64,000 nt of DNA from Candidatus Gorgyraea atricola (GCA_030765235.1 JAVCCW010000010.1:30907-94906); one strand, 5' to 3'; shown: positions 2,056-34,226, counted from the stretch's first letter. Numbers and translations: made by a program. The notes: a model not told the origin generated them from the letters alone.

Positions 2056-2072
2056 GTTTTTGTGGTTTCTTT

Positions 2073-12441: not shown

Positions 12442-13305
12442 CTATGTATGAATATCTTTTATTTCGACCGATGTATGGCCGAATTCTTGAAGCCTATTCG
12501 TTTTGATTTTTACGTCACAGGGATTACAGTGACCAAATCTATCACACGACCTAAAGACATCTTCCAATTGAAACTCAGTATCCAATATACTCTCTGTTGA
12601 CTCACGGCATTCATATAGGTCACTATGACATCTATGCACTCCTCCAGTGGGCCCGATGATAAATTCAGTGGTCTTACAAAGACACTTTTTTTTGAATTTT
12701 CTATTCACTGCCATTTCGTATTTATATGTGCCGAACAAAGAATCCTCGTAGTCTCCTAAAAATTCTTTTGTTCTGAAATCTATGCCTATTGTCCTTGCCT
12801 TGTCCTGGGCCCTTAAAATAATATCCTTATACGCTGGATGTGTGACTCCCCACATGCCAATACTAAACCCGGCATCCTGCATCTTTAAAACCTTCGCAAG
12901 GGTCTCGTCTAAACGCATCACCTCTGGATGGAAGCTCACCCTGATAGATGCATAAGGCGAGTCTCTTTTGAATCTCTCAGGCTTTACTGATCTAGTGAAT
13001 TCATCCACGTCAAACTGTATGTTTGTAAGCATGTCTAATTTTAGCTCTGGCTTAAGATTATTGATAATATAAATAAAATCCCTGTGTAAACTCGGCTCTC
13101 CCCCTTGCAGTGTGATGGGTAAATCGTTTCGCAAGGCAATCCTGTTAAGCCCTCTTATCCAATCCTCTCCACTTATCAGCTTCTTGTTGAATCTGGCCTT
13201 TTTATTTTTGAAGTAATTTATGCAATAACTGCATCGGTAATTACAGTTGAGTGTTAAAAACAAGGCTATATAATTATAGGTTTTGGGGATAATTATATCT
13301 CTCAT
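12442..13305 (-). CDS. Radical SAM protein with C-terminal Cys-rich (SPASM/twitch-like) region
   Basis: 287 aa; CNYRCSYC (CX3CX2C) at residues 21-28; GGEP motif; C-terminal CxxxxC...CNPC cysteines. Confidence 0.75.
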   Translation of the reverse strand: MRDIIIPKTYNYIALFLTLNCNYRCSYCINYFKNKKARFNKKLISGEDWIRGLNRIALRNDLPITLQGGEPSLHRDFIYIINNLKPELKLDMLTNIQFDVDEFTRSVKPERFKRDSPYASIRVSFHPEVMRLDETLAKVLKMQDAGFSIGMWGVTHPAYKDIILRAQDKARTIGIDFRTKEFLGDYEDSLFGTYKYEMAVNRKFKKKCLCKTTEFIIGPTGGVHRCHSDLYECRESTESILDTEFQLEDVFRSCDRFGHCNPCDVKIKTNRLQEFGHTSVEIKDIHT

Positions 13306-13306
13306 T

Positions 13307-15556
13307 TTAAGTCTGCGTTCTGTTCTCTTCAGGCTTAAACCTGTACAGGTAATAATTCAAGGAAAACCATACAAATACCGAGATCAATATATAAATCCAG
13401 AATAGGATAGGATATATTGTCTTAAACTCAAACACAACTCTATGTTTACCAACGGGGAGCTGAATTGCCTGAAATGCGTAATTGGCCCTGTAGATTTTTG
13501 CTGGCACACCGTCGATAGTGGCCTTCCATCCCCTATGGAAATTCTCTAATCTCGTTAAGAATCCATCTGCTGGAACATCTATTACTATATCTATTCTGTT
13601 AGGATCATCCCTTTTTATGATAGCCATGGCATCGGGCCCTAAAAAATACTTTGCCTTCCTCTTGTCAGGGACATCGAAATCAATCTCGTTTTCCTGAAAA
13701 AAAACTCGTAGAGTTTTCTGCTCTTCATCTATAAAATCTCTAAATATCTCCTTTATCATCTCATCTTTTTGCATGTTAGAACCAAAAACCCTCGCATTAT
13801 TAGTGAAGAACATAGTAGGCATGCCAACACCAAATGCCAATTCATGCCTTGACCCCTGCCTAAGCATTCTTAACATATCATGGAGACGCGTATTTCTTAA
13901 GAATATAAGATTTTCCCTTCGACTAGTCAGGCTCGCTTCCTTAAAGTATAAAGGAAAAAAATCGAAGGGCATTGCTGGCGATTGCCTTGCAAAAAGGCCT
14001 CTTTCAAGCGGATAGATTACAGGAGCAGGGGGTGATAGATTATCATAGGGGCGCGTGACAAATCTGGAAGGGGCATAAGATGATAATGCGATATTAAAAA
14101 AGCAAATATCTAATATTAAAATTAAAAAAAACAGTAAATATGCTGTTCTTACTGCCAGGACCCTATTTTTGAAAATCTTTAGCAGCATAAGCGAAAGTAC
14201 TATTACTATGCAACTTGATAAAATCAATACCCTGCCTATATTATCCTTCGCGGCCAAAAATAATACCAGGCCAGCTATAATAGTAATAAGGGGTATTTTA
14301 AATTTAGATTTTTCAGATAAGATCGCTTTCAGGCCAAATCCTGATGTACAAATTAAAAGAAAAGAGACGAGCTGGGAAAACATGAACGTATGCCGCATCA
14401 TGTTAAATCCTGGCACATGTTTAACTAAGGAGGGGAACACAAAAAACTCCTTCCCTGCTCCAACCGAAGCAGTGAATATAGCTGTAATAAAAAATGGCCA
14501 TACCAATTTATCTTTTGATCTAAGTAGAGCTATGGGTATAAGGATAAGCAGGATGATGCCAAAATAGAAGCCGTGATGAATAATGCTGTGAGTTTGACTG
14601 TCTTCAAATATCCTGTCTATAAGCAACCTATAATCTGAAAAAGAGGCATTAACCCTTGGTTGAGTACCATCTTGTTCTATAGAAAGGGCCGCGCCTGGGG
14701 CAAATGCCCCCCTCGAAGGGGAAACGAAATTTTTCATCTCGGAATTGAGAAAAATCAATGGCCCTGCCGCTAAAACTGCTATAAAAACAGCAAGGATAAT
14801 CAATTTATAATGCTGCCTCACAATCTGATAAACTATTTTAAGGTATGATAAATTAAACAGGAAAATTACAGCAACAAAGAAAAAAGAAACCAGAAAAATA
14901 TAAAGAGGAATATAGATATTCCACGACAAGCTGGTGTATATAATCGCGAGGGCTATACCATAAGGAGATTTATTTTTGATGGAGCTTACCAGGCCAAAAA
15001 GAATATAAGGGAAGAAATATAATAAAGCTATCCCTGCAGGCTGCCCCATATTCACATAAAAACAACCACTTAGTAAAAGAGATAAAAAACAAAAGAACGC
15101 AATCCTGAAATCATCAAAGAGCACATGAAATAATAAATATGCGCCGATACAGAAATTAAGAAATAAAAAAATCCAATATTGGTTAAAAAGGGTGTGGTCG
15201 TCTATTCTTATAAATTGGCTTAATAAAGAAAAAAATACATAGGGGGCCTTAAAACAACTGTTCGAAAAAAGATAGATAGGCTCACCCGCGTTCATGAACG
15301 GATTCCAGCCAGGATAAAATCCAGCATGAATCCACTGTTTTACTATGCGAAAGAAAATCTCGCCATTCCAGAAAGTATCATGATATGTGCTGGCTTTACC
15401 GAGAAAGAAATCTCTATAAAAAAACAGGAATAAAAATACGGCAGATCCTGCCAGGAAGGCCTTAGAAATAGATTTTGTAAACAAAAATACAGGAAGCAGG
15501 CAAAAAAACAATATTACCGCAAAATATACAAACGGCTGTACATTGACATCTAACAT
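13307..15556 (-). CDS. Large polytopic membrane protein with C-terminal extracytoplasmic domain (YfhO/GT-C-like glycosyltransferase candidate)
   Basis: 749 aa; more than 12 TM helices over about 480 aa followed by about 250 aa soluble domain and a final TM; layout typical of GT-C lipid-linked-sugar transferases. Confidence 0.45.
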   Translation of the reverse strand: MLDVNVQPFVYFAVILFFCLLPVFLFTKSISKAFLAGSAVFLFLFFYRDFFLGKASTYHDTFWNGEIFFRIVKQWIHAGFYPGWNPFMNAGEPIYLFSNSCFKAPYVFFSLLSQFIRIDDHTLFNQYWIFLFLNFCIGAYLLFHVLFDDFRIAFFCFLSLLLSGCFYVNMGQPAGIALLYFFPYILFGLVSSIKNKSPYGIALAIIYTSLSWNIYIPLYIFLVSFFFVAVIFLFNLSYLKIVYQIVRQHYKLIILAVFIAVLAAGPLIFLNSEMKNFVSPSRGAFAPGAALSIEQDGTQPRVNASFSDYRLLIDRIFEDSQTHSIIHHGFYFGIILLILIPIALLRSKDKLVWPFFITAIFTASVGAGKEFFVFPSLVKHVPGFNMMRHTFMFSQLVSFLLICTSGFGLKAILSEKSKFKIPLITIIAGLVLFLAAKDNIGRVLILSSCIVIVLSLMLLKIFKNRVLAVRTAYLLFFLILILDICFFNIALSSYAPSRFVTRPYDNLSPPAPVIYPLERGLFARQSPAMPFDFFPLYFKEASLTSRRENLIFLRNTRLHDMLRMLRQGSRHELAFGVGMPTMFFTNNARVFGSNMQKDEMIKEIFRDFIDEEQKTLRVFFQENEIDFDVPDKRKAKYFLGPDAMAIIKRDDPNRIDIVIDVPADGFLTRLENFHRGWKATIDGVPAKIYRANYAFQAIQLPVGKHRVVFEFKTIYPILFWIYILISVFVWFSLNYYLYRFKPEENRTQT

Positions 15557-15572
15557 TATGGCTGTCCTTGCA

Positions 15573-16031
15573 TTAGTCTACGCCAGCATAAAAAGAAAAT
15601 CGCGAATGTCCAAGATAGCTTATTATAGCACACATAATCATCACAATCGCCGCAGCGATTCTTGGAGAGATATATAGAATTTCCACAAAAAATGGCAAAA
15701 GGATCAGGCTCGATAAAAAAGTGACAACATACGTCATGCAAAATTTAAAAAACTCCGTTATTATCCTCCAACCTCTCACTCTTGACTTGAAGGTTATATA
15801 TTTATGAAAAATAAAGGCGTTGATAATCGCTATGAATGCCCCTAAAATCATGGCAGACATATAAGAAGTGTGTCTAACTTTAAATATATGTAAAAAAACC
15901 GCATAGAGAATCAGAAAAACTCCATATCCAAAAATTGTATTCCAAATCCCTACGATTATAAACTTTGTCTGTACTTTGTATTTACTTATGATAGTTTTTA
16001 TAATATTTGTCACGCTCTTAATGTTCATCAA
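15573..16031 (-). CDS. GtrA-family small membrane protein (polyprenol-P-sugar flippase-like)
   Basis: 152 aa; four TM helices; overlaps downstream GT2 gene by 4 nt (operon); GtrA-like size and topology. Confidence 0.6.
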   Translation of the reverse strand: MMNIKSVTNIIKTIISKYKVQTKFIIVGIWNTIFGYGVFLILYAVFLHIFKVRHTSYMSAMILGAFIAIINAFIFHKYITFKSRVRGWRIITEFFKFCMTYVVTFLSSLILLPFFVEILYISPRIAAAIVMIMCAIISYLGHSRFSFYAGVD

Positions 16032-16960
16032 AAATTAATCTTCTCTTTAATAACGACGAAAGGCTTCTTGCGAACCTGGGAATGAATAGCGCCGATATAT
16101 TCGCCGATAACGCCTAAGAAAAAAAGCTGGATTCCAAAAAACATTAAAAGCAGCGTGATAACACCTGCAACTGCTGGTATCTGGGCCTGCCAAATAGTAA
16201 ATTTCAAAATCAGATATATCATACATGCCAAAAAACTCAATGATGCCAGGCCCAGCCCTATATATGTGCTCAGCCTTATCGGAACAATAGAATAACTAAT
16301 TACTGCATTAATCGCAAAATCAACGAGATACTTAAAGCTGCTCTTTGAAACCCCTTTAGGCCTGGCCTTCCTTTTATAAGGAACACCGATTTGCTTAAAA
16401 CCAATGGAGGATATTAATCCCCTGATATATGGTTTATAATCGTCCAGTTTAAGAAGTTCATTAACTATTTTCCGGTCTACTAGGCGAAATCCACCAGCAT
16501 CCAGAGGCAGCTTTTCATCTGATAACGCATTAACAATTCGATAAAATGTCTTGCGCATAAAAGACATGGGGAACATATCGCGAGTTTTCTTTCTGACTCC
16601 ATAAACTACATCGTATCCATCTTCCCAATATTTTACAAAAGTTGGGATGAGTTCTGGGGGGTCTTTCAGATTCGCCTCATAAGAAATTACCGCATCACCA
16701 ACGGCATACCTATAACCCATCATTCCACTTTTTATTGGTCCAAAATCCTTAGAATATACCAAAATCTTTACTCTTCTATCCTGCGAGGCTATCTCTTTTA
16801 AAATGAAAATTGTTTCATCAGTACTGCAGTTGTCCATAAAGATGTGTTCGTAATCATAGCTCTTCTCTAACCCTGCAAATACTTTTTTAATTACATGATA
16901 TACATCCCTTACTGTCTCAGCTTCATTACATACCGCGGTAACAACAGATATCTTTTTCAT
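16028..16960 (-). CDS. GT2 polyprenol-phosphate glycosyltransferase (GtrB/ArnC/DPM1-like) with C-terminal TM helices
   Basis: 310 aa; ISVVTAVCNEAETV N-terminus, DxD region (FMDNCSTDET), two C-terminal TM helices as in GtrB/ArnC. Confidence 0.8.
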   Translation of the reverse strand: MKKISVVTAVCNEAETVRDVYHVIKKVFAGLEKSYDYEHIFMDNCSTDETIFILKEIASQDRRVKILVYSKDFGPIKSGMMGYRYAVGDAVISYEANLKDPPELIPTFVKYWEDGYDVVYGVRKKTRDMFPMSFMRKTFYRIVNALSDEKLPLDAGGFRLVDRKIVNELLKLDDYKPYIRGLISSIGFKQIGVPYKRKARPKGVSKSSFKYLVDFAINAVISYSIVPIRLSTYIGLGLASLSFLACMIYLILKFTIWQAQIPAVAGVITLLLMFFGIQLFFLGVIGEYIGAIHSQVRKKPFVVIKEKINF

Positions 16961-16974
16961 AATAACACCTCTCG

Positions 16975-18291
16975 TTATATCGGTTTCAACATCTTATCAA
17001 AAATACTACAAATAAATTCAATCTGCTCCTTCTTTATCCCAGGATAGACCCCTATCCAGAAAAGATTATCCATTACCATGTCTGTATTTTTTAAACTGCC
17101 ATGGATCCTGTATTTTATATTTTCATAGGCAGGATGTTTTATTAGATTTCCACCAAAAAGCATCCTTGTGGCAATCTTATTTTTTTCTAAATATTTCACT
17201 GTCTCATTTCGCGTAAATGGGGCATCTTTTTTTACTAAAACAGGGAAGCCAAACCAACTTGGGTCAGAATTTTTTGCTTCCAGGGGAAGAACAAAATACC
17301 TCTCATATTTTTTAAAAAAAGCGTATAAAAACTTAAAGTTTTCTTTCCTTGCCCTTATAAAACCAGGAAGTTTTTTTAACTGTGCCACGCCAATTGCAGC
17401 TTGCATATCAGTAATCTTCAAATTATAGCCAATATGTGAATAGATGTATTTATGGTCATAACCATCCGGCAATCCCCCAAACTGCTGAGAGAATCTTTTA
17501 CCACAGGTGTTATCGTGTCCTGGTTCACACCAACAATCTCTTCCCCAATCACGAAATGATAAAATTATCCGTTTCAACAGCAAATCATTAGTCAAGACCG
17601 CGCCTCCTTCACCCATCGTTATGTGATGCGATGGATAAAAACTACATGTAGCAATATGTCCAAACGCCCCTGTATATTTTTTTCTGTATCTTGAACCCAT
17701 GCTATCGCAGTTATCCTCGATAAACCATAATTTATGCCTTTTTACTATCTTTAAAATCTTATCCATATCGGCAGGATTACCTAATGTATGGGCAATAAAA
17801 ATTGCCTTGGTCTTTTTGGAAATCGCCTTTTCGATTCTTTCTGCCTGGATGTTATAAGTCCCCAAATTTATATCTACAAAAACGGGAACTAACTTATTCT
17901 GCACAATGGGGTTGAGGGTGGTTGGAAATCCACAGGCAGTAGTAATTACTTCATCGCCTGGTTTTAATCGCCGCTCCTTTAATAGCGGTGAAGTCAAGCT
18001 AGAAACTGCCAGTAAATTCGCAGAAGAACCTGAGTTTGTAAGTATACAATATTTTATGCCTAAAAATTCTGAAAATTCTCTTTGAAATTGCTTGGCAAAT
18101 CTACCGGAAGTCAACCAAAAATCAAGCGAGGCATCTACTAAATTTGTCAATTCTTTTTCATCGTAAATGCGGCCCGCATAATTAATTAAAGTTTTTCCGG
18201 GTATAAACCTTGCCTCCTTTTCTCTGTATCTAAAGAGTTTGACAACTTTTTTAAAGACCTCCTGCCTTATTTTTCTCCGTGTCTTCGTCAT
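16975..18291 (-). CDS. rfbH: CDP-6-deoxy-D-xylo-4-hexulose-3-dehydrase (E1; RfbH/DdhC), PMP- and [2Fe-2S]-dependent
   Basis: 438 aa; DegT/AHBA fold; active-site [15 protein letters not shown] (His replacing the PLP lysine, the E1 hallmark); Fe-S motif [21 protein letters not shown]; SDPSWFGFP block. Strong resemblance to RfbH. Confidence 0.8.
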
Positions 18292-18315
18292 ATATAAATT
18301 TACACCGTGTATGCT

Positions 18316-19386
18316 CTAATCAATAAAATCCTCACTTGTAAATACTTCAGTATAAGGTACTGGGAGCGGTTTACCGTAGATTTTTTTCACCGCATAGTCA
18401 TTAATAAATTTTCTGTCCTCTGCAATAAGACAAGTGTCAGCATATTTTCCAAAATATTTAACCTTCATGCCTCTTTCAATAATGTCTTTTAATGGTTCTT
18501 CAAAAAAGTTTCCAAGAGAAACATGAATATATGGACAGGGCATTACGTCGCCATACTTTGTAATAGACACCATTCTTTTAACTGATATGCATCCTAAATT
18601 AAGGCCATACGATGGGGTTAAATGTGTAAACACATTATACTTTTTCTCGAGTTCTCCCATATAATCCATGTCATCCTTATCGACAAGAACATCAAAATTC
18701 CCTTCCCATGATCCAACAGGCTTTGCATATGTTACAAATACTCCTACTCCTTTTCCGTTCAGAAATTCCAAAAATTCAATGAACTCTTGTGATCTAACCC
18801 TTTGCTTTGTAACTACAGTTTGTATGATAATATTTAATCCTGCGCCCAAGGCCGCATCAACAGCTCTTACGGCTCTTTCTTGCGAACCCGCCTTGCGTCT
18901 AAATGCATCATGTTCCGCCGCCGACATGCTATCAATGCTCAACTGAATTTTGTCAACGCCTATACTTTTTAGATGTTTTGCTTTTTCTGAATCCAAAAAC
19001 CAGCCATTGGTATCCGAAACTATCCAAAATTTCTGCGGGTCGATAGCCTTAACTATATCATCAAAATCCGGAAATACTAATGGTTCGCCGCCTGTAATTA
19101 CAATTTGCGCAAGCCCCATTTCGTCCGCTTGCCGTGAAAGTTCCCTTACATCATCAGGCGTAAAAAACCTTCCTTCCTTTTTCCCCTGAAATCTTTTCGT
19201 TGAACAGTGTATGCAAGAAAAATTACACCTATAATCGTATTGGAATTGAATTATAGCTATGCTCTCTCCATTTTTAACCTTTTCATCAAATTTCATGATT
19301 TTTTCATAGACATACGGTTTTTCTTCTTTTAGTGAGGCCCTTTTTTTTATTTCATTTAGTTTTAATTGTCCTTGTTGGCCTGGCAT
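18316..19386 (-). CDS. Radical SAM protein (SPASM/twitch-like C-terminal cysteines)
   Basis: 356 aa; CNFSCIHC (CX3CX2C); GGEP; later Cys pairs (CISVKR...MPCPYIH). Confidence 0.75.
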   Translation of the reverse strand: MPGQQGQLKLNEIKKRASLKEEKPYVYEKIMKFDEKVKNGESIAIIQFQYDYRCNFSCIHCSTKRFQGKKEGRFFTPDDVRELSRQADEMGLAQIVITGGEPLVFPDFDDIVKAIDPQKFWIVSDTNGWFLDSEKAKHLKSIGVDKIQLSIDSMSAAEHDAFRRKAGSQERAVRAVDAALGAGLNIIIQTVVTKQRVRSQEFIEFLEFLNGKGVGVFVTYAKPVGSWEGNFDVLVDKDDMDYMGELEKKYNVFTHLTPSYGLNLGCISVKRMVSITKYGDVMPCPYIHVSLGNFFEEPLKDIIERGMKVKYFGKYADTCLIAEDRKFINDYAVKKIYGKPLPVPYTEVFTSEDFID

Positions 19387-19412
19387 AATATTTATCTCCT
19401 TGTATCGCTATG

Positions 19413-21047: not shown

Positions 21048-21066
21048 ATTTCTTATCCTCTAAGAA

Positions 21067-23084: not shown

Positions 23085-23104
23085 CCTGCCTCGCCCCGCA
23101 TGCC

Positions 23105-24616: not shown

Positions 24617-24626
24617 AATATATCCC

Positions 24627-26426: not shown

Positions 26427-27412
26427 AAAATACCCTTATACCAGTTTATGGTTTTCTTCAAGCCTTCTTCCAAGCTATGCTTTGGTTTCCAGCCAAGGGC
26501 CTTTCTTGCCTTCCATGATGAAAGATGCTGATGTCTAATCTCATGCCTTACCTTGCTTAGAATTTTATAAGATGGCCTTATGCCGGCTAGTTGATAAATC
26601 TTTTTTACCATCTTTATGACCGATACGGGTTTCTCATTGCTGAAGTTAAATGCCTCTCCTTCTAATTTCAATCTTTGCAAATTTTCAGCAAGCAGAATAT
26701 ATCCATTCATAATATCCTCGACATAAACATAATCACGCGTAAATCTTCCATCGCTGCGAATAAGTAATTTCCTGTTCTGAAGCGCTGATCTGATTGCATC
26801 AGGGGCAATCCTTGAAAAATGGAAATCCCCAGGGCCAAAGACATTGCCGCATCTGGTTATGCCTACAGGTAAATTATAGGTATTATAATAAGTATGCGCT
26901 AATAAATCCGCGCAGCTTTTAGAAGCGTCATATGGATGATTACCAGATAAAGGAGCGTCTTCCTTATATGGAAGTTTATTAGTCTCTCCGTAGGCCTTAT
27001 CGCTTGAGGCTATTACAATGGATTCTATGAATTTTTTATTTCTTGACGCCTCTAAAATATTCCATGTGCCTTCAATGTTTGATTTAAAAGTCTTAATGGG
27101 GTTCTTGTTAGCCTCGAGAACTATCGCCTCAGCAGCCAGATGAAAAATAGTCTGCGGCTTAAATCTTTCAATGACATTTTTAACTAATTCTAAATTTATA
27201 ATATCTCCCCTGACGCAGGTTATATCCTTTCTTAAGCCGTTAAGCATAGAAACTGGGCGATTTTTTATCTTGTCGATGCCTGTTATTCTAGCGCCATAGC
27301 CCAGTAAAACCTTGGCAAGCCAAGAACCCAGAAAACCTTCATGGCCTGTTATCAAAACCTTTCTATCTTTCCAAAAGACACCTTTTCTATTGCTCATTCC
27401 CAGACCTTCCAA
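26423..27412 (-). CDS. rfbG: CDP-glucose 4,6-dehydratase
   Basis: 329 aa; FWKDRKVLITGHEGFLGSWL N-terminus characteristic of RfbG/DdhB; SDR YxxxK; 4-nt overlap with rfbF (operon). Confidence 0.8.
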   Translation of the reverse strand: MEGLGMSNRKGVFWKDRKVLITGHEGFLGSWLAKVLLGYGARITGIDKIKNRPVSMLNGLRKDITCVRGDIINLELVKNVIERFKPQTIFHLAAEAIVLEANKNPIKTFKSNIEGTWNILEASRNKKFIESIVIASSDKAYGETNKLPYKEDAPLSGNHPYDASKSCADLLAHTYYNTYNLPVGITRCGNVFGPGDFHFSRIAPDAIRSALQNRKLLIRSDGRFTRDYVYVEDIMNGYILLAENLQRLKLEGEAFNFSNEKPVSVIKMVKKIYQLAGIRPSYKILSKVRHEIRHQHLSSWKARKALGWKPKHSLEEGLKKTINWYKGIF

Positions 27413-28182
27413 GGAGCCCTATTTTCCTTCCACATCTGATTTAAGTTACCATATTCCCTGATAGTGTCAACACAGTACCAAAATCCTTTATGTTCATATA
27501 CGCCCATCTGTTTATCTTTTACCATGTTAGGCAGGGTCTCGCCCTCCAAAACTAAATCTTCTCCTGGCCTGAAATATTTATGAATGACCTTTTTATTAAA
27601 GACCATAAATCCGCCATTAAACAACCCCGTGCTTACATTAGGTTTCTCATTAAAGGAAGATATCATATTGCCGGTGGCCTGTATTTCACCAAAACGGCTA
27701 GCAGGATAAACTCCTGTTATTGTACCCAATAAACTGGATTTTTTATGAGTCTCTATCAACTCCTTTATATCAATATCAGCGACACCATCCGCGTAAGTCA
27801 CGCCAAAGATATTACTGTGCTCTAAATACTTACGCACATTCCAAATCCTTGCTCCAGTTTGAGAATTCTCCCCTGTTTCCACCATAGTAACTTTCCAATC
27901 TAAATCTTCATTACGATGATGACGATAGACTGCCAAACCTTTTTTATTTAAATTTACGGTTACATCTGAAACCTTGGCCATGTAATTTAAGAAAAATTCC
28001 TTTATCAGCCATCCTTTATAACCAAGGCATAGGACAAAATCTTTTATGCCATAATGAGCGTACATCTTCATTATATGCCAGATCATAGGCCTATCGCCTA
28101 TAGGAAGCATGGCCTTAGGCAAAACCTCGGAAACATCCCTGATCCTTGTTCCTCTACCACCGCATAGGATTACTAACTTCAT
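27394..28182 (-). CDS. rfbF: Glucose-1-phosphate cytidylyltransferase
   Basis: 262 aa; MKLVILCGGRGTRI...LPKAMLPIGDRPMIWHIMKMY, near-canonical RfbF/DdhA. Confidence 0.85.
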   Translation of the reverse strand: MKLVILCGGRGTRIRDVSEVLPKAMLPIGDRPMIWHIMKMYAHYGIKDFVLCLGYKGWLIKEFFLNYMAKVSDVTVNLNKKGLAVYRHHRNEDLDWKVTMVETGENSQTGARIWNVRKYLEHSNIFGVTYADGVADIDIKELIETHKKSSLLGTITGVYPASRFGEIQATGNMISSFNEKPNVSTGLFNGGFMVFNKKVIHKYFRPGEDLVLEGETLPNMVKDKQMGVYEHKGFWYCVDTIREYGNLNQMWKENRAPWKVWE

Positions 28183-28263
28183 GATATCCTCCTCTGGACT
28201 TTGAAATTCCCTGCAATAAATTATAAGTATACAGCCTAATTCTCTTTAAGTCCAATATTTTAC

Positions 28264-29367
28264 TCAGATAAAATTAACATGCATCGGTTCTTTGCCTTTT
28301 ACATCTTCTAATGCGGCCTCTCCGCGCTTCAGATCCAATAGAAAGTCATTAACGCTATGTTGAAGGCATAAAGTGCCGCACATGGTCCTGGCGTCAAACT
28401 CCTCAGACGCGATTAGATCTATAACATCCCAGTAGCGCTTGCTTTCCCAGATCTTTTTAAACGGTGTATCAACTATATTTCCTATATGATATTTTTTATA
28501 CCTTCTGTTAAATAACATCCCGCATGGCGCCACAAGGCCTGAACCTGAAAACTGCATGATAAAAGGCGGGCCATAGCAGCGGGAATATCTGCGCTTACCC
28601 TTGCTTAAAATCTTAGACCATTTTACCCTTACTATGCACTGCTTGTCTGAATACGATTCTGCCTGCTTTAAGAGATCCTTGAGCGGCTCATATTTGGAAT
28701 AATCAATACCTAAAGACCCCCTCTCGTCATCACTGCAGTGTTTGATAATAACATAGTCTACTCCGAGCTCCTTGCCAAGCCTTACCACTGGAATGATCTG
28801 GTCTTTAAAATCAGGCATTAGAACCATCTGCAGGCCAAGCGTAACATTCAGGTTTTTCTGTCTTTTTATCTTCACGCATTTTTTTATAATATCACTTACT
28901 GCGTAAAAATGTTCTCTCCTGCACCCCATAATACGCGCATATCTTTCAGGTTCTCCAGCTGAAATATTGAACCTCAAATACGTAAGCGCTGATAAAATTT
29001 CCTCTAAGCGCTCTTCTTGCAAAAGATAACCGTTTGTAGCCAGGGCCATGTCTAATCCATTGGCCTTACCCCTTATTATGGCATCGTATAAATGAGAAGA
29101 GCATGTGCTTTCTCCGTCGCTTACAAGGCTTATTGCCTTTACGCCGATCTCAGCCGCATCATCCAGGAATCTGAAGATAACATCCCTGGTCATCCTTTTT
29201 TCATCATTGGCCTGAAGCTGGCCATAGCAATACACGCATCTATACGTGCATTTCCTGGTAAGCGCGCAGTCTATGGTTATGGGCGCAATCCGTTCCCCCT
29301 GCAGCCAGGCCTCAACCCTATCTCTGTGCCAGTGTAATTTATGACCATCCAGTAGCAGCTCTGTCAT
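28264..29367 (-). CDS. Radical SAM protein, paralog A (shared family with 32154-33218)
   Basis: 367 aa; CTYRCVYC (CX3CX2C); N-terminal HKLHWHRDRVEAWLQGERIAPI block and C-terminal ...HVNFI both shared with the 354-aa paralog. Confidence 0.75.
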   Translation of the reverse strand: MTELLLDGHKLHWHRDRVEAWLQGERIAPITIDCALTRKCTYRCVYCYGQLQANDEKRMTRDVIFRFLDDAAEIGVKAISLVSDGESTCSSHLYDAIIRGKANGLDMALATNGYLLQEERLEEILSALTYLRFNISAGEPERYARIMGCRREHFYAVSDIIKKCVKIKRQKNLNVTLGLQMVLMPDFKDQIIPVVRLGKELGVDYVIIKHCSDDERGSLGIDYSKYEPLKDLLKQAESYSDKQCIVRVKWSKILSKGKRRYSRCYGPPFIMQFSGSGLVAPCGMLFNRRYKKYHIGNIVDTPFKKIWESKRYWDVIDLIASEEFDARTMCGTLCLQHSVNDFLLDLKRGEAALEDVKGKEPMHVNFI

Positions 29368-30137
29368 TAAGATTTTTTATAACGCTGCGCTGATGCGCAA
29401 CCCTGAGTAAACTTGTATCTTTTGCTTTTCTCTTTCTTTCCAAAGTATATGTCATACACTAATTTCAGGTATTCCTTTATAACCTGCAGAGAATTTGAGA
29501 ATGTAGTTGCCTTTGATTTGCCAATCTTTCTTGATCCTAACCTATAGGGAACCTCTGCAAATAGATATCCTCTCTTTGCGAGCCTTATTAAAATATCCGC
29601 CTGAAAAAAGAAACTCGAGCTTCTATAATCCAAATCACTCAAGATCGATCTTCTGTAAAGAACAGTCCCGTGGGGATAGTTAAAGGACGTGCCGAATGTG
29701 CTATTAAGAATTTTCAATAAGAAAAAAGATAGTATATTTCTAAATAATGTCCTGTCGCGTTTATTATAGACAAAGGGGATTACCATATCGACTTCATCCA
29801 AGAGTTTTAAATAGCGAAATATCTCATAAGGGTCATTTTCATCGTCTCCGGGCAGCATGCAAACTATCTCACCCCTGGCATTCAGGATGCCATCCCAAAA
29901 TGACACGCCTATGCCCTGCGGAGTTTCGTGATTAATCAGGCGGATTCTATTGCCTTCTTTGGACATTAATTCTTTCACAAGCTCCAATGTCTTATCGCTC
30001 GAGCCATCATTAATAATAACAATCTCTCCATCTACTTTAAAGGCCTCAAAGGCCTTTAAAGTATTATTGATAGCGGATAAAATGTTCTTTTGTTCGTTTA
30101 ACGCTGGCATTATTATACTTAAAAATACAGGGCTCAC
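29367..30137 (-). CDS. GT2 glycosyltransferase (Dpm1-like, soluble)
   Basis: 256 aa; LSIIMPALNEQ N-terminus, DGSSD, DxD-type region (MLPGDDENDP). Confidence 0.75.
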   Translation of the reverse strand: MSPVFLSIIMPALNEQKNILSAINNTLKAFEAFKVDGEIVIINDGSSDKTLELVKELMSKEGNRIRLINHETPQGIGVSFWDGILNARGEIVCMLPGDDENDPYEIFRYLKLLDEVDMVIPFVYNKRDRTLFRNILSFFLLKILNSTFGTSFNYPHGTVLYRRSILSDLDYRSSSFFFQADILIRLAKRGYLFAEVPYRLGSRKIGKSKATTFSNSLQVIKEYLKLVYDIYFGKKEKSKRYKFTQGCASAQRYKKS

Positions 30138-31180
30138 TCTTTCACCTTTTTGCTTATAACATCGACTATATCTTTATAATCAGGGTAAAATTCTTTTTCC
30201 AGCGCAGAAGAGGCAGGTGTATGCGATTCAGGCAAACCAATTCTTGCTGCAGGAGACTTTAGATATTTGAATGCCTTTTCAGAGACCCTTGAAACTATCT
30301 CTGCTGCCACCCCGCAATTACTCCAACCTGTATCTGCCACAACTAATCTGCCTGTCTTTTTAACGGATTCTAAGATCAGATCTTCGTCTAATGGTGTTAA
30401 TGTGCGCAGGTCTATCACCTCGACGCTCACCCCATGTTTTTGTAAAACCTCTTGTGCCTTCAGAGATTCAAACATCATATAAGAAATACCCACAAGAGTC
30501 ACATCTCTGCCGATTCTCCGAACAACACCTTTGCCGAACGGTACAGTATACATATCTTCAGGGACATACCCTACGTGTTCATATAACCATCTATGTTCTA
30601 TGAAAATAACAGGGGTATTTTCCTTTACGCTCGAAATCAAAAGGCCTTTAACATCATAAGGAGTGGCTGGCATTGCGACCCTCAAGCCAGGCACATGCAT
30701 AAAAAGCGCCTGCAGGCTTTGTGAATGCTGGCTGGCAGAACCCCAGCCCCTGCCTATTATCGACCTTATGGTCAAAGGGATTTTGACTGTCCCGCCAAAC
30801 ATATAGCTCCATTTTGCAGCATGATTAATTATTTGATCCATTGACATGGGTAAAAAATCCATTCGCATATGAATAAAAACTGGCCTCATGCCAGTAATTG
30901 CAGCGCCTATGGCAATGCCTGTGGTGGCATTTTCTGCAATAGGTATATCAATAATTCTGGATCGTCCAAACCTTTTATGTAGATCTTTGGTAGTGCCAAA
31001 TACCCCACCTGCATCATCTATGCCTTCGCCGATTAAAAAGACTCTGCTATCTTCCTCTAATATCTGAGTAAAGGCCTCTTTTATGGCCTCTCTATAAGTA
31101 AGGCCTCTTAAAGGCTTGCCACTCTCCTTGCGAGCATTTTCAAATTCTGTCCTGTCAGGATAAACCTTTGTCCACGGCAT
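30134..31180 (-). CDS. TPP-dependent 2-oxoacid dehydrogenase E1 component beta subunit (transketolase-like Pyr + C-terminal domains)
   Basis: 348 aa; E1-beta layout (GEGIDDAGGVFGTT ... transketolase C-terminal domain); 4-nt overlap with GT2 gene and adjacent to E1 alpha. Confidence 0.8.
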   Translation of the reverse strand: MPWTKVYPDRTEFENARKESGKPLRGLTYREAIKEAFTQILEEDSRVFLIGEGIDDAGGVFGTTKDLHKRFGRSRIIDIPIAENATTGIAIGAAITGMRPVFIHMRMDFLPMSMDQIINHAAKWSYMFGGTVKIPLTIRSIIGRGWGSASQHSQSLQALFMHVPGLRVAMPATPYDVKGLLISSVKENTPVIFIEHRWLYEHVGYVPEDMYTVPFGKGVVRRIGRDVTLVGISYMMFESLKAQEVLQKHGVSVEVIDLRTLTPLDEDLILESVKKTGRLVVADTGWSNCGVAAEIVSRVSEKAFKYLKSPAARIGLPESHTPASSALEKEFYPDYKDIVDVISKKVKE

Positions 31181-31182
31181 AG

Positions 31183-32157
31183 TTAATACACGTCCTCTAA
31201 CAATCCTTCTTTTTTCGGAAACGATGAAGACTTGGCAAAGGATACTGCTTTTTCGATTTCTCTTCCCAAGCTTTCCTTTATATCCCCTATATCCCGTATT
31301 GATAAAATTCCTTCTTTCAAAATAGATTTTCTAAACCTCTCTATCGGGCATTTTTTAAGCCACCTATCCAGTTCCCCTCTTGGCCTGCACCCTGTTTCAA
31401 AATCACAATCCGGCCCCACATGGCCTTTCCATCTATAGGTCCTGCATTCAAGTAAGCTCGGGCCTTTGTTGTTTTTCGCCCTTTCCACAGCAACCCTGGC
31501 CGCTTCAAAAACCTCTCCTACATCATTTCCATCTATCTTTATGCCTGGGATTCCATAAGGTAGTCCTTTTTTATATATATTATCCAGGGCCTGCCTCGCA
31601 GATGCTGGCGAATTAGTCGCATAAAAATTATTTTCGCAGACAAAGACAACAGGCAGTTTTTTTAAGGCTGCGAAATTCAAGCTTTCGTTAAATGTGCCTT
31701 CATCTGTTGCGCCATCACCAAAAAATACCACGCTGATTCTTTTCTGCTCCTGCATTACTGAACCCATGGCCGCGCCAACTGCAATAGGTATGCCTCCGCC
31801 CACTATTGCAGAGCTGCCCATAAACCCATTCTTAGTGTCCGCTAAGTGCATAGAGCCGCCCTTACCTTTTGAACAACCTGTAACCCTTCCGTACAGCTCA
31901 GCCATAAACTCATTTAAATCCCCACCATTAGCAATATAATGACCATGACCTCTGTGGTTACTAAACACATAATCTGTTTTTTTGAGGTTTGCGCACACGC
32001 CAGCAGCTATTGCCTCCTGTCCTATGCATAGATGCACAGGACACTTTATCTCCTGATCAGGATAGAGCTCGATTATCTTTTCTTCAACCATCCTGATCTT
32101 CAGCATGGTTTCAAAAAGCCAGATAAATGTCTTTCTGTCAATCCCTTGCATTTTCAT
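31183..32157 (-). CDS. TPP-dependent 2-oxoacid dehydrogenase E1 component alpha subunit
   Basis: 324 aa; TPP-binding GDGATDEGTFNESLNFAA motif of E1-alpha; paired with beta subunit. Confidence 0.8.
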   Translation of the reverse strand: MKMQGIDRKTFIWLFETMLKIRMVEEKIIELYPDQEIKCPVHLCIGQEAIAAGVCANLKKTDYVFSNHRGHGHYIANGGDLNEFMAELYGRVTGCSKGKGGSMHLADTKNGFMGSSAIVGGGIPIAVGAAMGSVMQEQKRISVVFFGDGATDEGTFNESLNFAALKKLPVVFVCENNFYATNSPASARQALDNIYKKGLPYGIPGIKIDGNDVGEVFEAARVAVERAKNNKGPSLLECRTYRWKGHVGPDCDFETGCRPRGELDRWLKKCPIERFRKSILKEGILSIRDIGDIKESLGREIEKAVSFAKSSSFPKKEGLLEDVY

Positions 32158-33218
32158 ATAAAATTGACATGTGCCAGGGGCCTTTTAAGCTCCCATAAGT
32201 ACCTATTTACGTCATCGAGCCTACAAATCTCGCGGCAATTTCGCGAATCGAGTCTCGTTGCAGCCATATTCAAAATCTTTCTACGCGCCTCACCTTTAAT
32301 GATGTCAGAAAATTCACCCTTATATATATTCCCATACACAAATCTCTTTTCACCTAAATACGCGCTGCAAGCAGAGACATTACCCTCTGCGTCTATATAT
32401 GCCCAGAAAGGTAGCCCCGGGCAATGTTTATAGACCCTGTTCTTTTTTAGTTTTTCCATTGTCTGGGATCTGAATATTATCTTGAATTCCTCTGTCGATA
32501 TCCTTTTAAGCCTATCCTCCAGATATAAAAATTTAGCATAGTCAAAATCCTTGTCTATATTACTACGGCTCATTGGATGTTTTGAAAATGGCTTTATTAT
32601 TAGATAATCCACGCCTGTCTTTTTAATGAGTTTGGCTAACTTAATGACCTCTCCCTTGTTTTCTGGAATCAATAGCATCTGGACGCCTATCGTGCAATCT
32701 AATCTAAATTTACGTTTGTATCTTACAGCCCTATCCAAATTAGAGAGGACTTTTTCAAAATCTCCCTTTAAGCATCTATGAATCTTTTTGTAGGTAACTG
32801 CGGTAGATGCATTAAAACTTACTCGTATCCACGAGAGACTCTTAAGGCACTTTTTTATTATTTCATCATTAAGAAATACCCCATTTGTAGTAACAGCTGC
32901 ATCAATCCCTGAGCTTTTTGTAAAATTTATTATACGGGCTATATCCCCATGAAGAAGGGGCTCGCCCTCACCTGCGTACATTATGCTTTTTACTCCACAT
33001 TTAGCCGCGCTTTTTACAGCCCCTAGTAAAATCTTTGTATCCAGGAATTTCGGTTTATATCCCATATAATCTAATCCGCAGAATATGCATCGATGATTGC
33101 AGGCGCCAGAAGGCGCGATCTCCATGTAAATAGGCGCTATCAACTCGCCCTTCTGCCATCGATTTACCCTATCAACATGATATATTAATTTATGATTATC
33201 TATTCTCAGTTCATCCAT
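32154..33218 (-). CDS. Radical SAM protein, paralog B
   Basis: 354 aa; CNHRCIFC; N-terminal HKLIYHVDRVNRWQKGELIAPI and C-terminal ...AHVNFI shared with paralog A. Confidence 0.75.
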   Translation of the reverse strand: MDELRIDNHKLIYHVDRVNRWQKGELIAPIYMEIAPSGACNHRCIFCGLDYMGYKPKFLDTKILLGAVKSAAKCGVKSIMYAGEGEPLLHGDIARIINFTKSSGIDAAVTTNGVFLNDEIIKKCLKSLSWIRVSFNASTAVTYKKIHRCLKGDFEKVLSNLDRAVRYKRKFRLDCTIGVQMLLIPENKGEVIKLAKLIKKTGVDYLIIKPFSKHPMSRSNIDKDFDYAKFLYLEDRLKRISTEEFKIIFRSQTMEKLKKNRVYKHCPGLPFWAYIDAEGNVSACSAYLGEKRFVYGNIYKGEFSDIIKGEARRKILNMAATRLDSRNCREICRLDDVNRYLWELKRPLAHVNFI

Positions 33219-33231
33219 AACAATCTCTTCT

Positions 33232-34161
33232 CTATTTTAATAATTTTGCAATGTTTTTATATATGGACTCTGGTTTTATATTGTGCATACAGCTTTTACT
33301 GTATTTACAAACAGTGTTAAAACACGGCATGCATTCTAAGCTCTTATCCGGTTTTATTACCATACCTCCATTGCAAAGAAACACCTCTTTCTCTGAGGTT
33401 GGGCCAAACATTGCAATGATGCCTTTCTTCAGCGCTATTGCAAGATGCAATCCCAGCGAATCGTTTGTAATAATAAGCCTGCAGCTATTAAGCCAGTCAA
33501 TGTAACCATTTATATCACTAAGCGACTGCTGGTATGAAATTGAATATCTTCCATCTATTAATTTCTCTAATCTTCTCCAGTTTTTTTTGGGCCATGTCTT
33601 GTTTGGCCATCGCATCCCAACCTTGGTATTAAACCCTATATCAAATCTCTGCTGAGTCTTTGGTTTATAGCCCAGTATATAGCCTTGTTCTGACCATCTT
33701 GCCCCTACCATTTCATAAAGCATCTGGGTCCAGTTTTTTTTCATCTTCCGCCGCAGCACAGGATCTTCGGAATTTGCCACTGCTTCATATGAATGCTCGT
33801 ACGCCTCTGCTGTTCCTTTTTTTACATCAAATCTGAAACCATATCTCTTCCACGCGTTTATAGAATCCGTAAGCGCGCATACACCCGGAATCTTTTCCAG
33901 ATTTATAATCATGTCGAACTCTTGGGACTTAAGCTGCAGGGAAGTGGTTAAGTCATACACCAGCAGCTTATTTATATAAGGATTGCCTGTCAAAAGGGGG
34001 CTCGCCTCTTTAGTGGTAAGCCATGTTACATCATCCTTCTTGAACAGATGCAATATTGCCGTGGTCCTAAAGACATCGCCAAGGCTGACATTTTCAGTAG
34101 AGACCTTTTTATCAATAGTCTCTGTAAACCCCATCTTAACGATAAGTATCTTTCTTTTCAT
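33232..34161 (-). CDS. GT9-family glycosyltransferase (heptosyltransferase-like); start refined to MKRKILIV
   Basis: ORF track start at 34176 lies inside the palindromic repeat; internal ATG at 34161 gives MKRKILIVKMGF...; GT9 features (LGDVFRTTAIL..., C-terminal GPTS/ FGPTSEKE). Confidence 0.6.
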   Translation of the reverse strand: MKRKILIVKMGFTETIDKKVSTENVSLGDVFRTTAILHLFKKDDVTWLTTKEASPLLTGNPYINKLLVYDLTTSLQLKSQEFDMIINLEKIPGVCALTDSINAWKRYGFRFDVKKGTAEAYEHSYEAVANSEDPVLRRKMKKNWTQMLYEMVGARWSEQGYILGYKPKTQQRFDIGFNTKVGMRWPNKTWPKKNWRRLEKLIDGRYSISYQQSLSDINGYIDWLNSCRLIITNDSLGLHLAIALKKGIIAMFGPTSEKEVFLCNGGMVIKPDKSLECMPCFNTVCKYSKSCMHNIKPESIYKNIAKLLK

Positions 34162-34171
34162 AGGAGTTAGA

Positions 34172-34226
34172 CCCATCCGACCGCGTAGGTCAGATTTAAA
34201 TCTGACCTACGCGGTCGGATGGGTAG
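34172..34226. repeat. 55-bp perfect palindromic (REP/MITE-like) element, copy 1, intergenic
   Basis: cccatccgaccgcgtaggtcagatttaaatctgacctacgcggtcggatggg; homologous (about 85%) to palindrome at 46129-46184. Confidence 0.7.

Follow-up and report, generated by a model that had tools for sequence, protein, structure and literature searches.

Does a single gene array that joins the core of a CDP-3,6-dideoxyhexose pathway to five radical S-adenosylmethionine (SAM) proteins and two thiamine diphosphate (ThDP)-dependent systems make one sugar or more than one? The question is raised by a 22-kb cluster at positions 12,442 to 34,161 of a 64,000-nucleotide stretch of DNA (the window) from Candidatus Gorgyraea atricola (GCA_030765235.1 JAVCCW010000010.1:30907-94906), a metagenome-assembled genome (MAG) of the phylum Omnitrophota in the Planctomycetota-Verrucomicrobiota-Chlamydiota (PVC) group. 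A sequence-only reading had proposed that the whole cluster serves a single pathway to a heavily C-alkylated, branched and possibly higher-carbon sugar. The window proteins were profiled against Pfam and NCBIfam, whose curated cut-offs are quoted below for each family, and every gene listed by that reading was recovered, at the coordinates it gave, in one tight minus-strand array, including the five radical SAM (rSAM) proteins, one of which carries a B12-binding domain (Table 1). Comparison with related loci shows that the cluster is two separately conserved surface-sugar cassettes, one nested inside the other. On balance, the locus is probably a long lipopolysaccharide (LPS) or surface-glycan operon in which, of the two independently conserved cassettes, Module 2 would make a branched CDP-dideoxyhexose and Module 1 would tailor heptose.

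Two cassettes in one array

The comparison covered 166 loci (cited by number with the prefix L), of which 83 were anchored on relatives of the NeuB-cupin fusion protein in species genomes and 83 further ones on relatives of the radical SAM protein rSAM_E in metagenomes. Twenty-two window proteins were compared with all loci by tblastn, a coverage of at least 0.6 being required. The 54 NeuB-cupin loci with sufficient flanking sequence are referred to as well covered, and counts of the gene context of rSAM_E are likewise limited to loci with sufficient flank, namely 47 upstream and 44 downstream.

Module 2 (13307-28182) has the gene order RfbF-RfbG-ThDP enzyme-NeuB/cupin-short-chain dehydrogenase/reductase (SDR)-C-methyltransferase-B12-rSAM-rSAM_B-RfbH-family 2 glycosyltransferase (GT2)-GtrA-candidate GT-C protein. 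Module 1 runs GT9-rSAM_E-E1alpha-E1beta-GT2-rSAM_D and resumes after Module 2 with rSAM_A and a membrane protein, its order being split in the window, between rSAM_D (28264) and rSAM_A (13305), by the 15-kb block that extends from RfbF to the gene of a 749-aa protein. The order GT9-rSAM_E-E1alpha-E1beta-GT2-rSAM_D-rSAM_A is uninterrupted in five loci (L090, L091, L100, L104 and L144), all of them without RfbF, NeuB-cupin and rSAM_B. The two gene sets also segregate across the samples. Among the 83 NeuB-cupin loci, the ThDP enzyme is present in 70, RfbG in 64, RfbH in 58, RfbF in 53, the C-methyltransferase in 42 (19 at 50% identity or more), rSAM_B in 36 (at up to 84% identity), the PgfS-like GT2 in 21, the SDR in 18 and B12-rSAM in 17; E1alpha, E1beta, GT9, rSAM_A and the membrane proteins are found in none of them, the Module 1 proteins giving weak rSAM matches only. 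Among the 83 rSAM_E loci, the small GT2 is present in 30 (26 of the 41 long loci), GT9 in 20, E1alpha in 17, E1beta in 16, rSAM_A in 15 and RfbF in two; a second rSAM paralog of the rSAM_D type (60-75% identity) follows the GT2 genes in about 21, and NeuB-cupin and rSAM_B occur in none.

A syntenic relative, L085, has both flanks of the window and lacks Module 2. Its upstream flank consists of a patatin, a hybrid kinase, a hexapeptide transferase, a GT2, a TPR protein, an opposite-strand GT2, a 593-aa membrane protein and GT9, and its downstream flank of rSAM_A, a PMT_2-like protein and a response regulator (RR)-GGDEF-MshEN protein. In parallel, the GC content at third codon positions is 0.366 in the Module 2 genes against 0.419 in the Module 1 genes, the GC content of the remaining window being 0.423. 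At the borders of Module 2, direct and inverted repeats amounted to short chance matches with no insertion scar, and the window holds no mobile-element gene.

If all five rSAM proteins, both ThDP systems and the C-methyltransferase acted on a single CDP-3,6-dideoxyhexose, as first proposed, the product would be a single, heavily alkylated sugar bearing two carbon branches. Several observations speak for such a pathway and weigh against two separate modules. The array looks like one transcription unit, as its genes are co-directional with tiny gaps or overlaps, terminator hits inside 11-34 kb are at chance level and none is comparable to the hairpin just 5' of the array, and promoter and terminator scans within the cluster stay at the level of shuffled sequence. 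Moreover, the window shares with L034, L086 and L136 the placing of Module 1 elements beside CDP-dideoxyhexose genes, so that some cross-talk between the modules is conceivable. L086 (3-14 kb of a 485-kb Omnitrophica contig) has RfbF-RfbG-SDR-ThDP enzyme (580 aa)-RfbH without NeuB, directly followed by GT9-rSAM_E-split transketolase-GT2-rSAM_A; here too, as an independent instance, a yersiniose-type set adjoins Module 1. The archaeal locus L034 (Nanoarchaeia MAG, 5.8-11.5 kb) has RfbF-RfbG-NeuB-cupin directly preceded by an rSAM_E-like gene (42% identity) and a split transketolase-like pair; of the NeuB-anchored loci other than the window, it is the only one where genes of Module 2 and of the Module 1 type seem to be fused. 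A single pathway is nevertheless unlikely, given the complete absence of E1alpha, E1beta, GT9 and rSAM_A from one sample and of NeuB-cupin and rSAM_B from the other (with RfbF nearly so), the many loci in which Module 1 is complete and contiguous without CDP-sugar genes, and the constant neighbours of Module 1, which are heptose genes. Because the genes of the two modules segregate in both samples and Module 1 is contiguous on its own, the cluster is better read as two pathways, and since the modules are separate, three of the five rSAM proteins and the E1 pair are assigned to the heptose-linked cassette. The synteny comparison therefore upheld the sugar context of the genes and split the cluster in two. 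As both cassettes are widespread, the window is one instance and not a singular oddity.

The CDP-dideoxyhexose cassette

The profile matches support a true CDP-4-keto-3,6-dideoxyhexose core in Module 2, and with it the earlier reading of the region as a glycan locus. RfbH exceeds the PRK15407 cut-off of 423 bits, carries His in place of the Lys that binds pyridoxal phosphate, and displays the arrangement C195-x57-C253-x-C255-x7-C263, read from the sequence, which we take to be the ligand set of the E1 [2Fe-2S] cluster; the protein had rightly been called an E1, and it is present in 45 of the 54 well-covered loci. RfbF matches TIGR02623 over its full length with 299.1 bits (cut-off 300.25, about one bit short), and the best match of RfbG is TIGR02622 with 247 bits (cut-off 278), the dTDP-glucose dehydratase model giving 188 bits. 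That both lie slightly under their cut-offs counts against the core as read, as does the lack of a partner reductase: an E3 of the AscD/DdhD type, with plant-type 2Fe-2S and FNR motifs, was found by a heuristic motif scan neither in the window nor in the 83 NeuB-cupin loci, and none stands among the Pfam annotations of the window. The electrons for E1 would thus come from an unlinked carrier. rSAM_B was considered as a substitute for E3 and rejected, since it occurs in about half of the cassettes, yet all of them are without E3.

By sequence, the ThDP enzyme is clearly nearer to JanthE (453 bits, full length) than to PpYerE (5ahk, 250 bits) or to true acetolactate synthases (ALS; E. coli ALS I, 284 bits), and the NCBIfam ALS equivalogs all stay under cut-off, in agreement with its first description as a YerE-like member of the ALS family. 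JanthE, from Janthinobacterium sp. HH01, is its closest solved relative (PDB 8rph), a YerE-like enzyme that takes a broad range of donors and whose natural substrates are described as unknown (PMC12188165). The two differ in the ThDP motif, which is an unusual CDG in JanthE and a canonical GDG in the window enzyme (GDG…NN at residue 453). In 52 of the 54 well-covered loci, this enzyme accompanies the NeuB-cupin, either directly adjacent or with only a haloacid dehalogenase (HAD)-like gene between.

The NeuB-cupin protein matches 3g8r with 392 bits, and its cupin part is weakly like the D-lyxose isomerase 2y0o. Its residues H206, H229 and K120 align to H215, H236 and K129 of NmNeuB, the metal-binding histidines and the phosphoenolpyruvate (PEP)-binding lysine, and are invariant in 22 homologues; the position of NmNeuB E134 is a Ser. 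The equivalog models are far under cut-off (TIGR03569, 135 bits against 400; PseI, 117 against 340). Of the NeuB-SAF-cupin fusion originally read here, the NeuB and cupin parts stand, and the SAF domain is called by Pfam on some homologues and not on the window protein. The NeuB-cupin and rSAM_B proteins of the window are 100% identical to Ca. Gorgyraea atricola MAG proteins. Relatives of the NeuB-cupin occur in at least 460 species of bacteria and archaea, with 52-74% identity in Omnitrophota, Verrucomicrobiota, Nitrospirota, Bacteroidota, Chloroflexota, Cyanobacteria, candidate phyla radiation (CPR) bacteria, DPANN and Methanoperedens archaea, Pseudomonas, Pseudoxanthomonas and Mycobacterium szulgai/angelicum. 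The full Module 2 order recurs in Flavobacteriales, Nitrospirae, Bacteroidales, Desulfatiglans, Sulfurimicrobium and DPANN archaea.

In a published scheme, a functionalised 2-keto acid made by an aldolase is joined to CDP-4-keto-3,6-dideoxyglucose by a YerE-like enzyme, followed by a reductase, to give erwiniose (C4 branch), caryophyllose (C6) and gastriose (C7) (PMC9306805), and YerE-like enzymes accept C2-C8 donors (PMC12247030). With this scheme and acyl-branched 3,6-dideoxyhexoses of 10-13 carbons on record (PMC9306805, PMC12247030), the claim that the product has no described counterpart was too strong; in Module 2, what appears to be undescribed is confined to the NeuB-type supply of the donor and the tailoring by rSAM enzymes. 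Module 2 has all elements of the scheme bar the aldolase, and the NeuB-cupin stands there instead, no pyruvate aldolase (HpaI/BphI/citrate-lyase-like) being found in the cluster by Pfam annotation. The NeuB-type synthase thus appears to replace the aldolase. By analogy with KdsD/KdsA/KdsC, an isomerase-synthase(-phosphatase) route would yield a 3-deoxy-2-ulosonic acid as the ThDP donor, and its decarboxylation and reduction would leave a 2'-deoxy polyol branch of the pattern seen in caryophyllose; gastriose, as known from the M. gastri structure, likewise has a 2'-deoxy polyol branch. This donor supply is supported by the cassette of M. szulgai, which contains RfbFGH, NeuB-cupin, the ThDP enzyme, a HAD protein, two methyltransferases and SDRs, and no class II aldolase. 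The HAD-like protein (about 195 aa, motif WDVDDVLND) is encoded between NeuB-cupin and the ThDP enzyme in 44 of the 83 loci (e.g. L002, 11535-12122) and is present in 32 of the 54 well-covered ones; its absence from the window is a point against the proposed route. Compared with the HAD-bearing loci the window order is inverted, the ThDP gene preceding NeuB-cupin. The short SDR, whose homologues share 43-68% identity and start just after the ThDP gene in L003, L004, L006, L043, L051, L059 and L069, is a candidate YerF-type branch-carbonyl reductase. Module 2 probably makes a long-branched 3,6-dideoxy sugar, and the earlier prediction of a higher-carbon branched sugar is the best one for this part of the locus, though not as one sugar from the whole cluster.

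The same genes could be read differently, with the NeuB-cupin making a free ulosonic or nonulosonic acid residue (sialic acid- or Kdo-like) and the ThDP enzyme adding the two carbons of pyruvate to give a sugar of the yersiniose A type. Indeed, NeuB-family enzymes normally make nonulosonic acids, the HAD-like phosphatase is reminiscent of the Kdo and Neu5Ac-9-P routes, and YerE itself uses pyruvate. However, neither the window nor any of the annotated cassettes was seen to encode a CMP-ulosonate synthetase of the NeuA/KdsB type; together with the tight pairing of the NeuB-cupin and ThDP genes, the greater closeness of the window enzyme to the broad-donor JanthE than to PpYerE, and the documented existence of long-donor YerE-like enzymes (PMC9306805; PMC12247030), this makes a free acid improbable. 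The reading in which the NeuB product is the donor for the ThDP enzyme is thus preferred.

Among the tailoring enzymes of Module 2, the C-methyltransferase has D-mycarose 3-C-methyltransferase 4rv9 (84 bits), TcaB9 and 5t64 as best PDB matches, which fits the TylCIII-like enzyme named at the outset; at 45% identity or more it occurs in 16 of the 54 well-covered loci, 14 of which also have rSAM_B. B12-rSAM (CxxxCxxC at 242/246/249) is present in 10 of the 54, every one with rSAM_B. Its NCBIfam scores are far under the cut-offs (Sden_1168 P-methyltransferase, 145 bits against 575; HpnJ, 127; ApyD, 118; AprD4, 93; BchE similarly low), so that by this measure it fits no characterised methylase subfamily, and its best PDB match is a non-methylase, AprD4 (71 bits). 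rSAM_B, with CxxxCxxC at 54/58/61 and three further Cys, is found in 26 of the 54. In its case conservation is striking at the sequence level and well above that of the other cassette proteins: each of the 120 best-matching database clusters shares at least 79% identity with the window protein, as compared in related loci with 52-67% for NeuB-cupin, at most 69% for RfbH and mostly 40-47% for the ThDP enzyme (62% in one locus). In addition, an FkbM-type methyltransferase (Methyltransf_21) occurs in 10 of the well-covered loci, nine of them without rSAM_B. Because B12-rSAM and the C-methyltransferase track rSAM_B while the FkbM-type methyltransferase nearly excludes it, the cassette comes in two flavours, and the window carries the radical-SAM one.

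The best PDB sequence matches of rSAM_B are MoaA and BlsE. Its predicted structure assigns no function, which weighs against the reading of Module 2 given here: the AlphaFold2 model (25-sequence alignment) has a low confidence (pLDDT 58.7), and its Foldseek matches in the PDB, with TM-scores of about 0.45, were only radical SAM folds of a generic kind (MoaA, SkfB, viperin, PqqE and BlsE). The best relatives by sequence and fold, MoaA, BlsE and viperin-like enzymes, all act on nucleotides or nucleosides, but the model is poor. SPASM (PF13186) scores 26-31 bits on rSAM_B, rSAM_D and rSAM_E, which appear to be twitch-like, with three or four C-terminal Cys, and not full seven-Cys SPASM proteins. 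The proposed profile search thus returned radical SAM, SPASM and B12 domains and placed none of the proteins in a characterised subfamily above cut-off. These profiles bear on whether the rSAM proteins might instead be maturases of proteins, cofactors or peptides, for instance of the nearby Fe-S or ThDP enzymes, present in the operon by chance. Their best NCBIfam matches, all far under cut-off, are a tungsten-cofactor maturase (93 bits), MoaA, AhbD and PqqE, and the generic fold of rSAM_B points the same way. Such a role is very unlikely, however, since neither a precursor peptide nor a target enzyme is conserved alongside the rSAM proteins, and every one of them keeps its synteny with sugar genes in numerous genomes and across phyla, as shown by the distribution of rSAM_B and of B12-rSAM, which occurs only with it, and by rSAM_E, which lies between heptose and ThDP genes. 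For B12-rSAM and rSAM_B, moreover, the best relatives in the PDB include the sugar or nucleoside enzymes AprD4 and BlsE. The initial view that these are not generic maturases is thus borne out. In parallel, BtrN, DesII, AprD4, GenK and BlsE show twitch/SPASM or B12 architectures beside sugar genes, as here, although the similarity to these sugar-tailoring enzymes is low (47-71 bits) and confined to the core.

Export by a polyprenol-phosphate/GtrA/GT-C route, as suggested before, is consistent with a GT2 with transmembrane (TM) segments, a GtrA-family protein and polytopic proteins. The GT2 matches PgfS (223 bits) and ArnC (138 bits), both under cut-off, and its homologue follows the cassette in 13 of the 54 well-covered loci, with GtrA homologues following the GT2 in L005, L059 and L066. 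Only the C-terminal approximately 200 aa of the 749-aa protein are conserved, for example 3' of GtrA in L005; the protein gives a YfhO C-terminal match below threshold (25.7 bits, cut-off 28.5) and no PDB or NCBIfam match. The GT-C assignments are therefore weak, which counts against this last step. A TM-bearing GT2, a GtrA-family protein and a large polytopic protein likewise stand in a row in GtrA/GtrB/GtrC, ArnC/ArnE-F/ArnT, PgfS and CsbB/YfhO; in contrast to those three-component systems, the donor of Module 2 would be a CDP-sugar and the GT-C candidate is a sub-threshold YfhO match. In L168, a complete Module 2 of the radical-SAM flavour continues into Wzx/GT2/GT2/Wzy. Directly 5' of it (L168, 1-4300) lie a PfkB kinase and a cytidylyltransferase-like-HAD fusion, both heptose genes, and an ISL3-family transposase.

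The closest named pathways are those of yersiniose A (DdhA-D, YerE, YerF), erwiniose (ErwE/F/I/J), caryophyllose (MMAR_2331/2332) and gastriose (MygE/F/I), which share with Module 2 the conversion of CDP-glucose to the 4-keto-3,6-dideoxyhexose, a YerE-like carboligase, a small reductase and a dedicated supplier of a 2-keto acid (PMC9306805). Unlike them, Module 2 has as supplier a NeuB-type PEP synthase-cupin in place of a pyruvate aldolase, has no linked E3, adds a C-methyltransferase and two radical SAM enzymes, and has GT2/GtrA/GT-C export and not solely Wzx/Wzy.

From gene identities, module membership, co-occurrence and synteny we infer the substrates, step order and products of both modules. 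In Module 2, RfbF and RfbG would first form CDP-4-keto-6-deoxyglucose, from which E1 (RfbH) would remove O-3, an unlinked reductase or ferredoxin supplying the electrons. In a second step, the NeuB-cupin would isomerise a small sugar and condense it with PEP to a 3-deoxy-2-ulosonic acid, which in a third step would be decarboxylated by the JanthE/YerE-like ThDP enzyme, with addition of the acyl anion to C-4 of the keto-sugar. The branch carbonyl would then be reduced by the short SDR (step 4), the TcaB9-like enzyme would C-methylate beside the 4-keto group (step 5), and B12-rSAM and rSAM_B would perform radical tailoring, that is methylation, dehydration or epimerisation at unactivated carbons (step 6). 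The predicted product is a CDP-activated, long-chain 4-C-branched 3,6-dideoxyhexose. The PgfS/ArnC-like GT2 would load the sugar onto polyprenol phosphate and GtrA would flip it (step 7), and the 749-aa membrane protein would finally transfer it to a periplasmic acceptor.

The heptose-linked cassette

The rSAM_E family comprises 2995 proteins at E<=1e-20, and the named ones are mostly from Omnitrophota. rSAM_E and rSAM_D, which were correctly seen as paralogs from the start (33% identical), both have CxxxCxxC at 40/44/47, and rSAM_E has four C-terminal Cys in addition. rSAM_A has CxxxCxxC at 21/25/28 and seven C-terminal Cys; a PDB sequence search with it gave nothing useful, and its homologues in the rSAM_E loci, with up to 76% identity, come right after rSAM_D or the GT2 genes.

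The genes on both sides of rSAM_E are constant in kind. Directly 5' of it stands a heptose-linked gene in 39 of 47 loci, with GmhA adjacent in 21, HldE within 3.5 kb in 29 and GT9 adjacent in 10. In L127, for instance, an HldD-like epimerase, a PfkB plus cytidylyltransferase-like (HldE-like) protein and a SIS protein (GmhA-like) lie directly 5' of rSAM_E. Directly 3' of it is a ThDP enzyme in 41 of 44 loci, in one of three architectures: an E1alpha/beta pair (13 loci), a split transketolase-like pair consisting of TK_N (about 275 aa) and Transket_pyr (about 165 aa) proteins (20 loci), or an ALS/YerE-like enzyme (8 loci). Judged from these domain architectures, this slot reads as a clear case of non-orthologous replacement. 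The same three classes of ThDP enzyme, namely decarboxylase/YerE-like, alphaKADH2 and transketolase, build C-branched sugars (PMC12247030). In L090, a lipid A acyltransferase is encoded next door and a Wzx-like gene nearby.

In the window, the slot is filled by the second ThDP system of the sequence-only reading, which was confirmed as of the pyruvate dehydrogenase (PDH) E1 type: E1alpha scores 332 bits with TIGR03182 (cut-off 394) and 192 bits with human PDH E1alpha, and E1beta scores 326 bits with NF006667. No lipoyl, E2 or E3 domains are found in the annotated open reading frames (ORFs) of the window, about six ORFs at 57-64 kb lying outside the scan. E1alpha/E1beta pairs without E2/E3 likewise occur amid sugar genes in the alphaKADH2 enzymes (KbDH-alpha/beta of kibdelomycin; the aldgamycin and kosinostatin clusters). 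Those act on NDP-deoxy-keto sugars from 4,6-dehydratases in actinomycete antibiotic pathways, whereas the E1 pair of Module 1 sits in LPS-type loci of Omnitrophota, with rSAM proteins and heptose genes as its partners. The small GT2, which has no TM segment, has ArnC as best NCBIfam match (59 bits, far under cut-off).

With heptose genes 5' and a ThDP enzyme 3' of rSAM_E, and with the lipid A acyltransferase gene in L090, Module 1 would be an LPS-core-type heptose-tailoring cassette. In terms of the ADP-heptose pathway (GmhA, HldE, HldD, WaaC/WaaF), it is a GT9 that stands 5' of rSAM_E in the window, and GmhA-, HldE- and HldD-like genes that do so in its relatives. The GT9, whose homologues in rSAM_E loci reach 78% identity, is matched by PF01075 over its C-terminal approximately 90 residues only and by TIGR02195 with 49 bits (cut-off 135), and unlike WaaC/WaaF it lies far under the heptosyltransferase equivalog cut-offs, with no full-length match to the WaaC, WaaF or heptosyltransferase III models. 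GmhA and HldE were not found in the window, which speaks against a heptose substrate; the heptose link of this copy of Module 1 consequently rests on its GT9 and on its relatives. A literature search returned no description of rSAM or ThDP enzymes in a heptose pathway, and Module 1 may be new chemistry.

The substrate of Module 1 would be a nucleotide-heptose or a heptosyl residue. Our best guess is that a twitch/SPASM rSAM enzyme makes a carbonyl or radical site, to which the interchangeable ThDP enzyme, here E1alpha/beta with pyruvate, would add a two-carbon unit, the two further rSAM enzymes completing the product. Taken jointly, Module 1 as a new route to a branched or chain-extended heptose in the LPS-type glycans of anaerobes (an rSAM enzyme that activates a nucleotide-heptose and so replaces the 4,6-dehydratase, followed by interchangeable E1alpha/beta, split transketolase or ALS-like enzymes) and rSAM_B as the catalyst of a novel radical transformation of a branched, CDP-linked sugar with 12-13 carbons, with NeuB-type acids as the substrate class of JanthE-like enzymes, make up a tentative picture, possible but doubtful as a whole.

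Gene layout, neighbourhood and meaning

The minus-strand array runs unbroken from 36187 to 11299 and further, with gaps of -19 to +81 nt, the biggest internal one lying between rSAM_D and RfbF (Table 1). Just 5' of it, a hairpin with a 10-bp stem (7 GC pairs) and a T-run is terminator-like and would mark the upstream boundary of the operon. The first gene of the array probably starts about 70 codons inside the called GTG start (652 aa), because the hairpin overlaps the called start and the homologue in L085, the 593-aa protein directly 5' of GT9, aligns from residue 71 (60% identity). At the other end, the 11299..12438 protein is 73% identical to an L085 protein that has a weak PMT_2 match and the same neighbours.

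Table 1. Features of the array, listed in the direction of transcription (positions within the window).
Feature	Module	Position	Strand	Match
Terminator-like hairpin		36181..36203	-	stem + T-run
Membrane protein, 11 TM	Module 1 flank	34229..36187	-	no Pfam/NCBIfam match
GT9	Module 1	33232..34176	-	PF01075 52 bits
rSAM_E	Module 1	32154..33218	-	Radical_SAM + SPASM/twitch C-terminus
PDH-type E1alpha	Module 1	31183..32157	-	PF00676 266 bits
E1beta	Module 1	30134..31180	-	PF02779 (Transket_pyr) + PF02780 (Transketolase_C)
Small soluble GT2 (256 aa)	Module 1	29367..30137	-	PF00535 83 bits
rSAM_D	Module 1	28264..29367	-	Radical_SAM + SPASM
RfbF/DdhA-like glucose-1-phosphate cytidylyltransferase	Module 2	27394..28182	-	TIGR02623
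RfbG/DdhB-like CDP-glucose 4,6-dehydratase	Module 2	26423..27412	-	TIGR02622
YerE/JanthE-like ThDP carboligase	Module 2	24627..26426	-	three TPP domains
NeuB-cupin fusion	Module 2	23105..24616	-	NeuB PF03102 134 bits + Cupin_2
Short SDR (293 aa)	Module 2	22203..23084	-	Epimerase/RmlD_sub_bind
NDP-sugar C-methyltransferase, zinc-ribbon N-terminus	Module 2	21067..22212	-	Methyltransf_13/23/14
B12-rSAM, C-terminal TPR	Module 2	19413..21047	-	PF02310 43 bits + PF04055 74 bits
rSAM_B, twitch-like	Module 2	18316..19386	-	Radical_SAM + SPASM
RfbH/DdhC E1 (CDP-6-deoxy-4-keto-hexose 3-dehydrase)	Module 2	16975..18291	-	PRK15407 713 bits
GT2, two C-terminal TM, PgfS/ArnC/GtrB-like	Module 2	16028..16960	-	
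GtrA-family protein, flippase candidate, 4 TM	Module 2	15573..16031	-	PF04138 71 bits
749-aa membrane protein, 13 TM, candidate GT-C	Module 2	13307..15556	-	
rSAM_A, short (287 aa)	Module 1	12442..13305	-	PF04055 37 bits
PMT_2-like membrane protein, 10 TM, GT-C candidate	Module 1 flank	11299..12438	-	no own Pfam match

Several neighbouring genes deserve mention. An RR/GGDEF/MshEN protein (9803-11311, minus strand) has a 13-nt overlap with the last gene of Module 1 and is in the same place in L085, which suggests a conserved link of this envelope locus to cyclic di-GMP signalling. Adjacent genes at 375-3829 (minus strand) encode a 2-keto-3-deoxy-6-phosphogluconate/2-keto-4-hydroxyglutarate (KDPG/KHG) aldolase, an HMGL-like protein, a Zn-dependent alcohol dehydrogenase and a DeoC/LacD aldolase and could supply 2-keto acids or aldehydes, the KDPG-type and DeoC aldolases being 8-12 kb from the cluster. 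Genes for a PBP, AsmA, a PilT-like ATPase, an RluB-like protein and a DUF3187 protein lie between this set and the glycan operon. On the other side, the 460-aa gene at 36370-37752, with one N-terminal TM segment, is a separate unit and has no homologue in any fetched locus. The only plus-strand gene of the region, a GT2 (38241-38951), converges on a TPR protein (38907-40511, minus strand) with a 45-nt overlap, as it does in L085. Further on, at 52446-54995 and 49126-52381 (both minus strand), an 849-aa protein with six PKD domains is encoded beside two large ORFs, of 692 and 298 aa, without a Pfam match.

Collectively, these data bear on the ThDP enzymes, on the branched sugars and on the cell envelope of the organism. 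A 3-deoxy-2-ulosonic acid made by a NeuB-type enzyme is a concrete candidate for the physiological donor of JanthE-class ThDP carboligases, which are under engineering to produce tertiary alcohols (PMC12188165). About half of the widespread branched-sugar cassettes, in bacteria as well as archaea, carry an unusually conserved radical SAM enzyme. We know of no CDP-dideoxyhexose pathway that has a radical SAM enzyme like rSAM_B. Finally, Module 1 points to an undescribed kind of C-C bond formation on cell-envelope heptoses of Omnitrophota, to our knowledge a phylum with no cultured glycobiology.

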